From Minisyncoccota bacterium (lineage in GTDB: Bacteria > Patescibacteriota > Minisyncoccia > Phycocordibacterales > Phycocordibacteraceae): a DNA stretch of 56,358 bases. Shown piece after piece: positions 1 to 4,506 of the stretch. The notes under the pieces were generated by a model. That model saw nothing but the letters and a program-made list of their open reading frames with translations. It searched no databases and was not told where the DNA came from. Location of the stretch: positions 1 through 56,358 of the forward strand of contig JBAYJU010000001.1 of the NCBI GenBank assembly GCA_041664865.1. The letters are read 5' to 3'. The position numbers were made by a program, and so were the translations under genes. Position 1 is the stretch's first letter, and each line of letters opens with the position of its first letter.

Positions 1-122
1 TCAAACTCCTGTACATCAGCGCGTTTTCTCTTCCCTTTCACGAAATCTTTCCACGCATCAAGAAGATTCTCGACTGAGATGATATGCTCGTATGTATGAA
101 TGAATCGGATTCTTTGAGGCGA
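1..122 (-). CDS. Reverse transcriptase, N-terminal fragment (DGR-type; continues beyond window start; start codon unresolved)
   Basis: The minus frame with codons 3-5, 6-8 ... 120-122 reads SPQRIRFIHTYEHIISVENLLDAWKDFVKGKRKRADVQEF. This is the ENLLxAWxxxxKGKR-type N-terminus I recognise from DGR / group-II-like RTs. It sits next to avd and a TR/VR pair. This frame has no ATG/GTG/TTG between the stop at 189-191 and the motif. Confidence 0.6.
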
Positions 123-131
123 CCCCCCCCC
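123..131. repeat. C9 (G9 on minus strand) homopolymer at the RT 5' end, directly upstream of avd
   Basis: Read directly: ga-ccccccccc-gaggatg. It is the only long homopolymer I noticed in the window. Confidence 0.9.
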
Positions 132-135
132 GAGG

Positions 136-507
136 ATGTTGCCGGTGCTTGAGTGGATTAAACATGCGTATATCTTGTGGTATGGATTCTATCAGACCAT
201 ACCGAAGACCCATCGACACACTCTTGGCGGGAAAGTAGATGCGGAGTTTGTGGGACTTATCGAAGCGGTCGCGAGTGCCAGCTTCCTGTCGCGAGGTGAG
301 AAGCAACCATGGGTGCGACTCGCCATACGCAAGCTCGATACCCTAAAGGTGTTTTTGCTCATACTCTGGGAAACCAAATCACTTGATACAAAAAAATACA
401 TCGCGCTGTCTATGCCGCTTGATGAAGTCGGCAGAATGCTCGGCGGATGGAACGGGCAACTCACAAAGCAAAACTCGCCAGCGCAACAAGGCGCGGGCGA
501 GAAATGA
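136..507 (+). CDS. avd: DGR accessory variability determinant (Avd), four-helix-bundle / 23S-rRNA-IVS protein family
   Basis: 123-aa ORF with ..YQTIPKTHRHTLG.. and a C-terminal ..EVGRMLGGWNGQLTKQN.. basic tail, the pattern of Avd-type four-helix-bundle proteins. It lies between the RT and the TR. A GTG at 145 is an alternative start (GAGG at 132-135). Confidence 0.75.
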   Translation: MLPVLEWIKHAYILWYGFYQTIPKTHRHTLGGKVDAEFVGLIEAVASASFLSRGEKQPWVRLAIRKLDTLKVFLLILWETKSLDTKKYIALSMPLDEVGRMLGGWNGQLTKQNSPAQQGAGEK

Positions 508-513
508 AGAGAT

Positions 514-625
514 TTGCGGGAAGCAGGTACACCGGCAAGGAACCAATTGTCGTTCCAGTCGTTGTCGTTGCGATTGCAATTCACGTTCCGCTCGTCGTTC
601 CAGCGGTTGAACGTGAGGTAGCAAT
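514..625 (-). repeat. DGR template repeat (TR)
   Basis: 112 nt, identical to 975-1086 (offset 461) except at 12 positions. At all 12 this copy has T on the plus strand, i.e. A on the sense strand. The sense strand is AAC/AAT-rich (FNRWNDERNVNCNRNDNDWNDNW) and is preceded by in-frame TAG TGA. Confidence 0.85.
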
Positions 626-647
626 GTGTGGAGTGCCATCTATATCA

Positions 648-854
648 CTACCCATTGAAGCCTTGTGCGATCTCAGAGTTGTCTGCGGTGGTTCCGCGGT
701 CTTCGGCATCATAATGCCAGAGCACTTCACACCAAGTATCTTCATTTTTTGAAGTGTCTGCGTGCATCCTCCATTTGAAACCATAATCACAAATGTTCTC
801 AATGCACGGATACTGGGTTCGGTAGCGGGAAACCGTAATCGCCCGCGTATTCAC
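648..854 (-). CDS. Small hypothetical ORF (68 aa, GTG start) upstream of TR; possibly a decayed copy of the target C-terminal domain
   Basis: ORF track. The Cys/Trp pattern YPCIENICDYGFKW..W..W loosely parallels YPNCTQWGDNCYLTFDRW..W..W of the target. It ends with tandem stops TAG TGA (648-650, 645-647), and the same frame continues into the TR. Confidence 0.25.
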   Translation of the reverse strand: MNTRAITVSRYRTQYPCIENICDYGFKWRMHADTSKNEDTWCEVLWHYDAEDRGTTADNSEIAQGFNG

Positions 855-874
855 CTACTACCAATCACAGTGTA

Positions 875-912
875 CCAAAAGAAAACAGCATATCGCAGAG
901 CGATATGCTGTT
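875..912 (-). terminator. Rho-independent terminator of the DGR target gene
   Basis: 13-bp perfect stem aacagcatatcgc / gcgatatgctgtt (884-896 / 900-912) with loop aga. On the minus strand it is followed by ttttcttttgg. Confidence 0.7.
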
Positions 913-970: not shown

Positions 971-1564
971 CTACTTGCGGGAAGCAGGTACACCGGCAAG
1001 GAACCAATAGTCGTCCCAGTCGTGGCCGCTGCGATCGCAACACACGCGCCGCTCGTCGTCCCAGCGGTCGAACGTGAGGTAGCAATTGTCACCCCACTGC
1101 GTACAGTTAGGGTACGCATCGGCGAATGCCGAATCGGCTTCGTTCACGGCCGCTGTAGCTCGCGGATCCGGTACGAGTCCGTACTGCGCGAGGAACGCAG
1201 GGACATCTTTCGCCGGCACAAAGCGCTTGGTCGGGACGAAGTGGACATCCACTTCCTCGCCCTCTCCAATCGGCATCGTGGCTAGCACATCTTTGTCGAC
1301 ATACTGCTTACGGCCCGTGGCGTCAATGACTTTTTGCGGGGTGCGAGTGCGGTCGACGCGAACATGGCGTTTGATGGTTCCCTCCGGGAACGCCATTGCA
1401 TGAACCGAAGACGCCCGGTTCTTCACCGCTTCGGCGAAAAGTCTGATTGCATCTTCTGTGTTCTGGATCGCCCATTGGCGACACTCAGTCGACATGATGC
1501 AGAAGTGGTGTTGATGTTCAGTTAATGCCCCAGCCAACTTGGAAATCTGTTGTTGTTCACTCAT
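971..1564 (-). CDS. DGR target (variable) protein, 197 aa, no signal peptide; fold unassigned
   Basis: Intact ORF with AAGGAG upstream of the ATG at 1562-1564. Its last 37 codons are the VR (..CYLTFDRWDDERRVCCDRSGHDWDDYWFLAGVPASRK). Confidence 0.85.
   Translation of the reverse strand: MSEQQQISKLAGALTEHQHHFCIMSTECRQWAIQNTEDAIRLFAEAVKNRASSVHAMAFPEGTIKRHVRVDRTRTPQKVIDATGRKQYVDKDVLATMPIGEGEEVDVHFVPTKRFVPAKDVPAFLAQYGLVPDPRATAAVNEADSAFADAYPNCTQWGDNCYLTFDRWDDERRVCCDRSGHDWDDYWFLAGVPASRK
975..1086 (-). repeat. DGR variable repeat (VR), 3' end of the target gene
   Basis: Partner of 514-625. There are 12 substitutions, all opposite TR adenines, changing 10 codons (TR N,N,N,N,N,N,D,N,N,N -> VR D,D,R,C,D,S,G,H,D,Y). 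The sense-3' 32 nt (975-1006) are invariant. Confidence 0.85.
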
Positions 1565-1775: not shown

Positions 1776-2843
1776 CTATTCAAGCTTCCGTAATGCGAGG
1801 CCTACTGCTACCGCAAACTCAGGACCTATCTCCTCGAGTATTGGGCGCATGAATGCTGGCGCTGAAGTCTTCACAAAAGGGTCTGCCACTCGCACGTCAA
1901 TTGAGAATATCTTTTTCGCATATGCCCCGAGCGACTTCGTGACGCCGCCACCTCCAGTGAGCACGATCGAGCTGATCGACTTATTGTGCGATGTCTCATA
2001 CTGCGTCACCACTCGATGCGCCTCTGTGAAAATGCGAGAGAACACTAGCTCTAGGCTCTCATGCGCACCATCACCCTCCATCCCTTTCTCTTTCTTGACT
2101 GCCTCGGCTCTAGGAATAGAAACCCCGCTCGATACGGAAATAGCACGCGTTATGTCCTGACTACCGACACTGATAGAGTGCGAAAGCGCCACGATGCCAT
2201 GCTCGACTACATAAATCTTTGTCGATGCAGCACCAATATCGAGCACCATGACAGGCTTCACTGGCTCGTCTACCACGGCGCGTATGGTACTGAATATCTC
2301 TATCTCGTAGAAACTTGAAGAGAGTCCAGCGCCTGCAACTACCGACTGCAGGAGAGAAAGCTCGTCGTTGTGAACCGCAACAATAAGTACATCGACGGTA
2401 CTCTGTCGTTCAACATTCTCCTGAGGGCCGATTTTGGGCACGATGAACCAATCCAGCTGCACTTCGCTTATAGGCACAGGGATATATTTCCTAGCCTCTA
2501 GCTCGATGACCGTCTTCTGCTCTTTTGGGTCCTTCCGATACGGAAGTTCCACAAGAGAGAGTAGAGAGCGCGAGAATGGGATCGAGACTCCGCAACTCGT
2601 CGTAGTCACTTTCGCTTCACGCAAGAGATCCTTCAATGTCTCGACGACTTGCTCTTGCGAGAGACTCGTCGCCTGACCTACGTCGCCGCCGGCATATGGG
2701 CCGAGCGCGAGCTCGCCATATGTCTCGAGAACCGCCTGCCCCTTTTCCTTACGGAGCTGTACGACCTTCAGTGATGAAGATCCTATGTCCACACCCAAAA
2801 CACTCTTCTCCTGTTTAGAAAATAGAAAATCTAGGAACGCCAT
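1776..2843 (-). CDS. pilM: Type IV pilus assembly protein PilM (actin-like ATPase)
   Basis: N-terminus ..SVLGVDIGSSSLKVVQL.. and overall actin/FtsA-like PilM pattern; 355 aa. Confidence 0.8.
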   Translation of the reverse strand: MAFLDFLFSKQEKSVLGVDIGSSSLKVVQLRKEKGQAVLETYGELALGPYAGGDVGQATSLSQEQVVETLKDLLREAKVTTTSCGVSIPFSRSLLSLVELPYRKDPKEQKTVIELEARKYIPVPISEVQLDWFIVPKIGPQENVERQSTVDVLIVAVHNDELSLLQSVVAGAGLSSSFYEIEIFSTIRAVVDEPVKPVMVLDIGAASTKIYVVEHGIVALSHSISVGSQDITRAISVSSGVSIPRAEAVKKEKGMEGDGAHESLELVFSRIFTEAHRVVTQYETSHNKSISSIVLTGGGGVTKSLGAYAKKIFSIDVRVADPFVKTSAPAFMRPILEEIGPEFAVAVGLALRKLE

Positions 2844-2857
2844 GGGAAAATGATACC

Positions 2858-3487
2858 ATGTTCCGACTCATCGACATCATATTCCCGCCCCGCGCGGATG
2901 AGATCGTAATGCGAGACACTTCTGATGATGACTTCCTCTCGCTCGTCTCTCCACGGCTCGTGCCGGCTACACGACCTGGGACAGTAGCGCTACTACCCTT
3001 CTATCACCCGTCTGTTCGATCCGCAATTCACGAAGCGAAATATCATGGCAATGAACGCGCGCGTCGGCTCCTAGCGCTCGCTCTTGCCGAATATCTGTGC
3101 GATTCCGACGATGTAGGACATCGGAAGTCCTACATCGTGCCGGTGCCACTCGGGAAAGCTCGGCGCAGAGAACGAGGATTTAATCAGGCAGAGGAGGTCG
3201 CGCGGCGTGCAATCCATAACCTCGGGAAAGAAAGCACACAGAGATTCAAACTCGATACCAGCCTGCTCGTGCGCACTCGCGAGACTGTCTCTCAAGTCTC
3301 GCTACCGAGACTCGAGCGCGAAGAAAACATGCGCGGCGCCTTCGGCGCCGCGCATCCCGCCGACCCTACCAGCACATATCTGATTATCGACGACGTGCTC
3401 ACCACAGGTGCCACGCTCCAAGCAGCAATCGACGCGCTCAAATCTGCTGGTGCCACCAATATCATCCCGCTCGCCTTAGCGCACTAG
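2858..3487 (+). CDS. ComF-family phosphoribosyltransferase-like protein
   Basis: C-terminal PRTase motif YLIIDDVLTTGATL and GFNQAE, typical of ComFC; 209 aa. Confidence 0.75.
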   Translation: MFRLIDIIFPPRADEIVMRDTSDDDFLSLVSPRLVPATRPGTVALLPFYHPSVRSAIHEAKYHGNERARRLLALALAEYLCDSDDVGHRKSYIVPVPLGKARRRERGFNQAEEVARRAIHNLGKESTQRFKLDTSLLVRTRETVSQVSLPRLEREENMRGAFGAAHPADPTSTYLIIDDVLTTGATLQAAIDALKSAGATNIIPLALAH

Positions 3488-3504: not shown

Positions 3505-4506
3505 ATGGCTGAGATGTTTAAAGGTAAACGCGCAGTGTTCCCTGCTGGAGAACAGAGAAAATTTCTAGATGGAATCTGCCAAAAAGAAACACTCGCTCGC
3601 ATTGCGCTTATCTGCAAATGCTCCGAGCGCACGGTTCGCGATTGGCGCAGAGAGAAATTCTCCATGCCGCTTGGCGCCACACACGCACTATCTACTCATT
3701 TTAACGTACCGATTTCTGAAAAGATGTGCATTCGTGATGCGTATGCACATATTCCAAGAGCAAGCCGTATGGGAGCTGCAGCAACAATCAAGAAATACGG
3801 AAGCATCCCTCGCAACGAAGAACACCGGAAGAAGCAGTGGAGACTGTGGTGGGAATCGACAGGCAAACTTGCCAAAAATCCAATTCTCGAATCAAAAATC
3901 GTTTATAGACCGAAGCATGGCGCGAAGCTCGCTGAATTTATCGGCATCATGATGGGCGATGGAGGTCTCACCATGTATCAAGCCATAGTCACACTTCACC
4001 ATGTGGATGATTTAGAATACGCTTCATTTGTGAAAGGCCTCATCAAGAGACTTTTCAAAATCGAACCAAAAATGTATCACTCTCCGAAAAATTCGGTGAA
4101 TGATATTGTCGTGTCCAGAAAAAAATTGGTTATATATCTGCATGAACTAGGGCTACCAATTGGAAACAAGATCGACCAGCGACTAGATATACCTTTGTGG
4201 ATTAGATGTAACCGAACTTTCGCGATTGCATGCTTGCGCGGACTAGTTGATACGGACGGATGTGTCTTTACGCATCGTTACCGGGTAAAGGGCACGTGGT
4301 ACGCCTACAAGAAACTCTCCTTCACGAGCGCATCGAAACCATTACTGGAATCCGTGCATGATTTATTACAAGAACTAGGATTCCATCCCAGAACAACAGC
4401 GAAAGACGTACGCCTTGATAGGACAGAAGACATAAGACGCTATTTCAAGATAATCGGAAGCCACAATCCGAAACATTTGAGAAGATACGAAAATACGCTA
4501 GGATAG
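3505..4506 (+). CDS. LAGLIDADG-family homing-endonuclease-like protein with N-terminal HTH-like region (free-standing)
   Basis: Two LAGLIDADG motifs: FIGIMMGDGGL and LRGLVDTDGCV; 333 aa. Not embedded in a recognisable intron or intein. Confidence 0.8.
   Translation: MAEMFKGKRAVFPAGEQRKFLDGICQKETLARIALICKCSERTVRDWRREKFSMPLGATHALSTHFNVPISEKMCIRDAYAHIPRASRMGAAATIKKYGSIPRNEEHRKKQWRLWWESTGKLAKNPILESKIVYRPKHGAKLAEFIGIMMGDGGLTMYQAIVTLHHVDDLEYASFVKGLIKRLFKIEPKMYHSPKNSVNDIVVSRKKLVIYLHELGLPIGNKIDQRLDIPLWIRCNRTFAIACLRGLVDTDGCVFTHRYRVKGTWYAYKKLSFTSASKPLLESVHDLLQELGFHPRTTAKDVRLDRTEDIRRYFKIIGSHNPKHLRRYENTLG

Follow-up and report, generated by a model that had tools for sequence, protein, structure and literature searches.

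The template RNA of the Bordetella phage BPP-1 diversity-generating retroelement (DGR), as described in its ribonucleoprotein, contains in order the partner strand of the Stop duplex (avd 369-379), the template repeat (TR) with its primer-binding segment (TR117-129), an Avd-binding stem-loop (Sp3-33), the primer strand (Sp47-56) and, 2 nt later, the Stop strand (Sp59-70), followed by a short stem-loop with adenosines, a single-stranded Thumb Ring and a stem-loop that binds the reverse transcriptase (RT) (Handa et al. 2024, bioRxiv 10.1101/2023.10.23.563531). The avd gene of BPP-1 is co-directional with the rest of the cassette and lies upstream. In the Candidate Phyla Radiation (CPR), a cassette designated Architecture B3, TR-(avd)-RT, makes up 90% of the DGRs examined in the classification of Wu, Gingery, Zimmerly et al. 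(NAR 2018, PMC5758913). The locus considered here is a DGR with an inverted avd at one end of a 56,358-nt stretch (the window, which is the start of contig C1, JBAYJU010000001.1) from a Minisyncoccota genome of 0.68 Mb that is 97% complete. Its gene order is by itself unremarkable for CPR, and the point of interest is why an inverted avd works.

The explanation that we favor, to which as a whole a probability of roughly 0.7 is assigned, is that the template RNA is self-contained and permuted relative to that of Bordetella phage, and that the inverted avd is tolerated because an RNA of about 390 nt with its own ends need not reach the RT gene. This reading draws on direct observations: the layout and its conservation, helices with covariation, motifs resembling a promoter and a terminator, and a body of avd that is free of antisense constraint. 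An earlier examination of the same DNA, here called the original prediction, had raised the mechanistic concern that any TR RNA extending toward the RT must be antisense to all of avd, a concern that for the most part falls away if the template RNA is self-contained and, as it appears, permuted.

Gene Order at the Locus and in Related Loci

The genes and repeats of the cassette are as follows.

1-122, minus strand: 5' end of the DGR RT gene, encoding ...HTYEHIISVENLLDAWKDFVKGKRKRADVQEF, a typical DGR RT N terminus; the window begins at the contig end
136-507, plus strand: avd, 123 aa, opposite in direction to TR and RT
512-625, minus strand: TR, 89% identical to the variable repeat (VR), with differences confined to TR adenines
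971-1564, minus strand: DGR target gene, 197 aa, with VR (975-1086) at its C terminus

The target gene, VR, TR and the 5' end of the RT gene are thus all on the minus strand and avd, between TR and RT, is on the plus strand. Positions 514-625 and 975-1086 are 89% identical over 112 nt, with homology extending to about 512 (112-114 nt in total), and in the minus-strand reading 100% of the mismatches fall on TR adenines, the adenine-specific TR/VR pair expected of a DGR. VR forms the final 37 codons of the target open reading frame (ORF); the target protein has no sequence match in Pfam, NCBIfam or PDB, and its homologs adjoin 9 related DGRs. The Avd accessory protein of DGRs is recognizable in the 136-507 ORF from matches to Pfam bAvd PF22296 (E 5.9e-10, 40 bits, exactly at the gathering score) and to NCBIfam DivGenRetAVD (E 1.8e-14, profile positions 3-102 of 104, at 53.9 bits and therefore under the cut-off of 80); the Avd fold extends to about residue 106. 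The remainder of the RT gene is on contig C5 of the same genome, the last 123 bases of which are 100% identical to window 1-123. The RT body on C5 matches Pfam RVT_1 (E 1e-22), and YADD and LPLGNLTSQ are legible in its translation, so that the domain and the YxDD and [I/L]GxxxSQ signatures of a DGR-type RT are present in a gene split across two contigs; an NCBIfam scan of the RT returned only non-DGR RT models, each below its own cut-off. Judged from these sequence features, the locus is a real, functional-looking DGR of the CPR/Patescibacteria clade with the order target/VR - TR - (avd, inverted) - RT.

When the RT was used as a query, 80 related loci were obtained, all in metagenome-assembled genomes of Patescibacteria/CPR, with RT identities of 61-74%. 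A homolog of avd is antisense to and directly upstream of RT in 75 of the 80, and the remaining 5 are cut off upstream, so that the inverted avd, whose conservation in related contigs the original prediction had proposed as a check, is found in 75 of 75 informative loci. About 62 loci have the full series of VR, a gap of ~300-480 nt, TR, (avd) and RT, with adenine-specific mismatches. The arrangement is far beyond chance and is identical in order and orientation to Architecture B3, with avd reversed between TR and RT and no other accessory gene (PMC5758913); the gene order is therefore already known and ordinary for the phylum. Wu et al. (2018) present a classification of cassettes, in which the RNA leader, terminator and G/C tract discussed below are not described. 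The coordinates and strands assigned by the original prediction are borne out by the TR/VR alignment, the avd profile matches and the RT translation, as are the convergence of TR and avd and the divergence of avd and RT; the avd stop codon (505-507), placed about 6 nt from the TR end, is 5-7 nt from it as measured. Its description of the layout as non-canonical holds only against the Bordetella textbook case, Architecture B3 being the CPR norm.

A Structured Leader RNA Upstream of TR

The gap between VR and TR is conserved at the nucleotide level (column identity 0.55-0.87), and comparison among loci indicates that the minus-strand RNA from this gap to just beyond TR has the following putative elements, H1 and H2 being helices that flank TR.

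772-846, minus strand: leader 5' domain, with hairpins 825-846 and 772-795 that have GAUUA(C/U)GGUU loops and recur across loci
739-747, minus strand: 5' strand of H1, AAAUGAAGA, primer-like, 6 nt upstream of the H2 5' strand; pairs with 502-510
722-732, minus strand: 5' strand of H2, GUGUGAAGUGC, Stop-like, preceded by a near-invariant ACUUGGU; pairs with 626-636
705-718, minus strand: stem-loop SL1 (714-718 with 705-709), from alignment pairing and covariation
650-679, minus strand: stem-loop SL2 (675-679 with 650-654), with a conserved GAGAGUAUUCAA-type loop, from alignment pairing and covariation
626-636, minus strand: 3' strand of H2, GCACUCCACAC, Stop-like duplex partner, directly 5' of TR
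502-510, minus strand: 3' strand of H1, UCUUCAUUU, resembling a primer-binding site, directly 3' of TR and including the avd stop codon 505-507
474-501, minus strand: GC-rich terminal hairpin (496-501 with 474-479), from covariation and ΔG; its site matches the position of the Bordetella Avd-binding stem-loop
465-473, minus strand: U-tract UUUUGCUUU that follows the terminal hairpin and in which the template RNA is predicted to end

The 5' strand of H1 is the most conserved non-coding block (column identity 0.84-0.87). In all loci TR is followed immediately on its 3' side by a pyrimidine motif (CUCUCUUCAUUUCUC), then by a hairpin that is GC-rich and variable in sequence and by GAGUUUUGUUUU, and the top-conserved block of the leader, AAAAAAUGAAGAU-ACUUGGU, is complementary to the pyrimidine motif. 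The two sides of H1 change together, giving CUUGG/CCAAG in L005, AAACC/GGUUU in L022 and G-C or C-G swaps in L045, L058 and L083. The 11 nt that follow ACUUGGU pair with the 11 nt immediately 5' of TR, although these sequences are wholly different between loci. SL1 and SL2 are separated by a conserved single strand, GAAUACGAUACAG.

The pairing was evaluated in an alignment of 52 sequences in which five helices (H1, H2, SL1, SL2 and the terminal hairpin), comprising 36 pairs, were specified. In this alignment 90.1% of the cells are paired, as opposed to 36-52% when the partner strands are slid, the covariation score is 0.61 versus 0.10-0.17 for slid partners, neither observed value being reached in any of 500 shuffles, and 33 of the 36 pairs have changes on both sides. 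The structure recurs in 20 further genomes aligned over the whole RNA, with 87.8% of cells paired (39-51% in the controls) and a covariation score of 0.627 (control maximum, 0.188). A model restricted to the leader core had identified these genomes, so that the 3' strand of H1 and the terminal hairpin, which lie outside the model, are unfitted in them; H1 is replicated. For H2, 96% of cells are paired and 10 of 11 pairs are doubly changed in both alignments. The corresponding values in the 52- and 20-sequence alignments, respectively, are 91 and 81% for SL1 (5 of 5 and 3 of 4 pairs doubly changed), 92 and 97% for SL2 (5 of 5 pairs compensatory) and 85 and 78% for the terminal hairpin (changes on both sides in all 6 pairs). 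H1 considered alone in the 52 sequences is 84.8% paired, compared with 46-57% with its partner slid, has 45 doubly changed cells versus 6-18 and has a covariation score of 0.312 versus a maximum of 0.095 in the slid controls. When RNAalifold was applied to an initial alignment with many gaps, it detected H2, SL1, SL2 and the hairpin and missed H1, which was later tested explicitly.

A covariance model (R1) of the 107-nt leader core only gives a single hit in this genome, the leader itself, and 67 hits in 55 of 401 genomes drawn evenly from the phylum (14%), representing 44 of 320 genera. An avd homolog is present 123-206 nt downstream and on the opposite strand at 52 of the 67 hits, and at no hit is one co-directional. 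A scan of 1-1700 against Rfam (E<=1) matched no family, and the leader is thus a widespread structured RNA, present in 14% of sampled genomes of the phylum, that has no Rfam family.

Some further features of the leader were observed. The two hairpins of the 5' domain share their loop motif and have a conserved UACCGAACCCAGUAUCC between them. An extra hairpin, GCGG-AACCA-CCGC (686-697, minus strand), is present in the single strand between SL1 and SL2 in this window and in L011, and a hairpin is inserted within the SL2 loop in this window, L013, L020 and L025; the core accepts insertions at defined points. Several genomes have two or three copies of the leader, for example G075 (three) and contig C77 of G224 (548-653 and 1892-2017). 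A stretch of 600 nt around the leader gave no avd homolog for 15 of the 67 hits. Some of these 15 are at contig ends, and others may be orphan template RNAs or be associated with divergent avd genes.

Predicted Ends of the Template RNA and Its Overlap with avd

Motifs upstream of the leader suggest where transcription of the template RNA would begin.

884-912, minus strand: intrinsic terminator of the target gene, a 13-bp stem followed by UUCUUUUGG; an equivalent hairpin and T-run are found in relatives
869-877, minus strand: extended -10 promoter-like element, TGGTACACT, a family-specific -10 at a fixed distance from the core
~860-862, minus strand: predicted transcription start, with a conserved GGUAGUAGG after the -10

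In 35 of 52 loci, compared with 10.9 expected from shuffles, the sequence TGNTANNNT is present at a constant spacing (median 118 nt) from the leader core, and most of the remaining loci have TATACT or TATAAT variants at the same -10 position. At the other end, the hairpin that follows TR has 7-11 bp and a median ΔG of -15 kcal/mol in the 52 loci (-18.4 kcal/mol in this window, where it is followed by UUUUGCUU), and at least 4 U residues are present within 8 nt after the hairpin in 47 of the 52. The opposite strand of the hairpin has no U-tract, so the signal is one-directional, and the hairpin and U-tract have the sequence form of an intrinsic terminator on the TR strand, at which termination is predicted. 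A template RNA extending from ~862 to ~465, about 390 nt with a leader of ~235 nt, is predicted from these motifs.

The predicted RNA overlaps avd over a short distance, and the consequences for the protein-coding sequence are visible in a synonymous-site profile of 72 avd genes, for which the identity expected from codon degeneracy is ~0.5. Synonymous identity is at the degeneracy-expected level in codons 1-110 but reaches 0.92 and 0.90 in codons 112 and 113, where CAA AAC is the antisense of the U-tract; the tail of avd, codons 110-123 (the last ~14), is the antisense of the terminal hairpin and U-tract. Measured from the TR end, the avd stop codon lies between -24 and +39 nt in different loci, and the hairpin is kept. 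The double constraint of RNA and avd is therefore limited to ~45 nt, which here include the stop codon 505-507 inside the H1 strand, and nothing indicates selection for an RNA antisense to the body of avd. The double constraint on the 3' end of avd postulated by the original prediction thus applies to the last ~14 codons, which are opposite the hairpin and U-tract and whose stop codon is inside the H1 strand, and the excess of identity at codons 112-113 (0.90-0.92) answers its suggestion to examine covariation at synonymous sites in this region; the constraint does not extend to codons 1-110. It had also proposed a search for RNA structure from 514 downward. A conserved hairpin is present there, after TR, but the helix partners are upstream of TR. 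An RNA that ends before 507 and acts in trans, which by its own account would refute it, is closely approached by the predicted end at ~465-473, which is not before 507.

Comparison with the Bordetella Template RNA

The order of elements here is a primer-like strand, a Stop-like strand 6 nt later, SL1, a single strand, SL2, a single strand, the Stop partner strand, TR, the primer-binding strand, and the hairpin with its U-tract. As in the BPP-1 RNA (PMC6182149; 10.1101/2023.10.23.563531), TR is looped out between two duplexes whose partner strands are adjacent (separated by 2 nt in BPP-1 and 6 nt here), the first templated base adjoins the primer-type duplex, and the Stop strand is followed by a stem-loop, a single-stranded stretch and a second stem-loop. 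A stem-loop also comes straight after TR in both RNAs, being here the 7-11-bp hairpin found in at least 47 of 52 loci, for which Avd binding would be assigned by position only. H2 has the structural character of the duplex just upstream of TR, with one strand next to the primer strand, and may by analogy have the stop function; for the Bordetella Stop duplex itself, compensatory restoration was unsuccessful. H1 covaries and, like the BPP-1 primer duplex, abuts the 3' end of TR, a position from which it may have a role in priming. The connectivity differs in that BPP-1 has its primer strand, Stop strand and RT-binding elements on the 3' side of TR, within the spacer that precedes brt, but the putative counterparts are 5' of TR here, where the RNA appears to end after the first stem-loop and the inverted avd fills the interval between TR and RT. 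The two RNAs have no sequence similarity, and the two GAUUAYGGUU hairpins of the leader form an additional 5' domain that has no counterpart among the elements listed above for the Bordetella RNA. We infer that the CPR template RNA may be a circularly permuted form of the Bordetella phage DGR RNA, in which the old ends are closed and the opening falls between the Avd-binding stem-loop and the primer strand.

In the mechanism that we propose, the template RNA would start at its own -10 promoter near 862, right after the target gene terminator, continue through the structured leader of ~235 nt, TR and the 9-nt helix strand, and end at the GC hairpin and U-tract within the last ~14 avd codons, at ~465-473. 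With H2 (722-732/626-636) abutting the 5' end of TR and H1 (739-747/502-510) its 3' end, TR would be looped out. H1 would represent the template:primer duplex, with cDNA starting at C511, and H2 would halt cDNA synthesis, while SL1, the single strand and SL2 would bind RT and the terminal hairpin would bind Avd. TR and VR are homologous as far as 512, which is 1-2 nt from H1, and VR is mutagenized at A513, which fits a cDNA start at C511.

Of note, the survey of Handa et al. folded only 40 nt upstream and 100 nt downstream of TR. The leader strands of H1 and H2 are 97-122 nt upstream of TR and are therefore outside its range. If the priming and stop elements can lie on either side of the template, surveys of downstream sequence only, or of the 40 nt up/100 nt down kind, would misassign RNA elements, and the misassignment would affect the DGR clade that is most numerous in nature. 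A template RNA that is compact (~390 nt from promoter to terminator) and separable from the proteins would also be attractive for engineered targeted mutagenesis. A literature search, which left subscription journals uncovered so that priority is not excludable, yielded no account of a DGR RNA that is leader-borne or permuted, nor of the junction tract considered below.

Alternative Explanations

Because the window starts within RT and C5 terminates exactly at a homopolymer, the locus could in principle be a local misassembly or inversion, in which avd is truly co-directional and the contig break at the C-run is a chimeric join. However, the RT 5' end, avd, TR and VR are contiguous on contig C1, and the same order recurs in 75 independent assemblies, beside 52 of 67 leader hits elsewhere and as the published CPR norm (Wu et al. 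2018); the idea is scarcely credible and was rejected. It is also highly improbable that the VR-TR gap encodes a small accessory protein rather than an RNA. An ORF of 68 aa (648-854) is open in this window and tblastn similarity is found in many loci, but the ORF does not stay open across relatives, the tblastn matches switch reading frames within a locus, and conservation survives frame-breaking indels, from which the leader is judged to be a non-coding RNA. Moreover, the helices of the region carry compensatory changes, the length of the core is constant at ~107 nt and insertions respect the structure. The frame-jumping matches and the covariation led to rejection of the protein reading.

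The other two alternatives concern the path of the RNA beyond TR. According to the original prediction, a functional TR RNA runs antisense through the whole of avd toward RT, with the spacer or priming structure encoded opposite avd. Such a model has the analogy of Bordetella, where the spacer follows TR, and the first ~45 nt after TR are indeed a conserved structure that overlaps avd. However, the partner strands of both TR-flanking helices lie upstream of TR, the RNA has its own conserved promoter-like element, a strong terminator-type hairpin and U-tract follow TR in 47 of 52 loci, codons 1-110 of avd have no synonymous constraint, and the avd stop codon shifts from -24 to +39 nt while the hairpin is kept; the passage of the RNA through the whole of avd is thus unsupported, and the model is improbable. 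A less improbable variant, although still an unlikely one, has the same RNA structure but takes the hairpin to be mainly an Avd-binding stem-loop and a leaky terminator, with read-through antisense to avd serving as the RT mRNA. The expression of TR RNA, RT and avd would then be coupled, and convergent transcription would dampen that of avd. The position of the hairpin, which is that of the Bordetella Avd-binding stem-loop, the start of RT immediately past avd and the failure to find an RT promoter are in its favor, and a low dosage of RT would suit a mutator. Against it, the hairpin and U-tract have the strength of a canonical terminator, and the synonymous sites of avd give no hint of a selected antisense message, although a plain read-through mRNA would need none.

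Several considerations weigh against the self-contained, permuted RNA that we favor. Both of its ends are predictions from motifs, and the generic promoter and terminator scan found only the terminator of the target gene, having missed in this window the -10 (TACACT) and, owing to its internal loop, the post-TR hairpin, both of which emerged by comparison. H1 is short and A/U-rich, ~15% of its cells are unpaired, and its outermost pair fails in 19 of 52 sequences. The aligned sequences are related, so that the shuffle controls overstate significance and those with slid partners are fairer. H1, H2, SL1 and SL2 are equated with the primer, Stop and RT-binding elements of Bordetella by position and order only. 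Finally, no RT promoter was identified in a search by eye of the avd 5' region, where such a signal is inseparable from the avd coding constraint, and read-through of the hairpin, antisense to avd, could be a route for RT expression.

The avd/RT Junction Tract

The start of avd and the 5' end of RT are separated solely by a homopolymer.

123-131: C9 (plus strand) or G9 (RT sense) at the head-to-head avd/RT junction

A G-run of 6-14 in the RT sense, or a simple repeat, is present at this junction in all 77 loci examined, and its length differs between close relatives. In L058 and L060 the G-run is replaced at the same position by ~32 nt of (GT)n and (GA)n, respectively, and what is conserved seems to be the presence of a simple repeat rather than of poly-G in particular. 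An in-frame ATG, GTG or TTG for RT follows the tract in 57 of the 77 loci, often 13-22 nt downstream. The other 20, which include this window, have no RT start after the tract, and 15 of these are out of frame with any upstream start. A start-codon scan of the RT frame in this window, over 97-191 of the minus strand, found no ATG, GTG or TTG between a stop at 189-194 and the conserved N terminus HTYEHIISVENLL. The closest relatives, L005, L006, L007, L009 and L011, also lack such a start, and an out-of-frame CTCATGGA just after the tract is kept in L005, L009 and L011. With a tract of G8 or G11 in this window, the ATG at 164-166 would be joined to RT, and the upstream ATGs at 84-86 and 96-98 would come into the avd frame; avd nevertheless has ATG, TTG and GTG codons beginning, respectively, 4, 7 and 13 nt beyond the tract. 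At window 1-131 and L004 5334-5457, contigs C1 and C5 overlap by exactly 123 nt, the last base of C5 being the first C of the C9 run, which suggests an assembly-graph branch at the homopolymer, arising from length heterogeneity or poor coverage.

The pattern is compatible with switching by slippage, with homopolymer assembly error or with non-canonical initiation. Programmed frameshifting at the G-run was considered and set aside, there being no consistent rule and the frame relation differing among loci. Homopolymeric G/C tracts are characteristic of the contingency loci of Neisseria, Haemophilus and Campylobacter, in which they occur in phase-variable genes. The junction resembles these in having, at a fixed site at the start of two genes, a G/C homopolymer of 6-14 or, in two loci, (GT)n or (GA)n, with a length that varies between relatives, although the lengths compared are those of relatives only. 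It differs in that the RT start follows the tract in about three-quarters of loci, placing the tract in an untranslated leader and not in an ORF. A joint reading, in which the template RNA is an autonomous permuted small RNA in about one-seventh of Patescibacteria genomes and the mutator is gated by a hypermutable G/C tract at the avd/RT junction, phase-OFF at G9 in the assembled consensus, is put forward tentatively and is on balance doubtful. If the tract does switch, targeted hypermutation would itself become a stochastic trait.

Neighboring Genes

The DGR cassette is inside a type IV pilus cluster (window 1779-2843, minus strand; L004, on contig C5, 1079-4390, minus strand). A pilM gene (PF11104, E 3e-41) is upstream of the target gene, and RT is followed by two unannotated ORFs (215 and 186 aa) and then by a PilB-type ATPase (T2SSE, E 2e-115). 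Homologs of pilM, both ORFs and pilB are contiguous right after RT in L016, L022 and L025; the cassette here appears to split pilM from the remainder of the pilus cluster. An ORF of 333 aa at 3505-4506 on the plus strand has a LAGLIDADG_3 domain (E 5.9e-12) and a weak helix-turn-helix match, resembling a free-standing homing endonuclease, and adjoins a ComF-like phosphoribosyltransferase ORF at 2858-3487.

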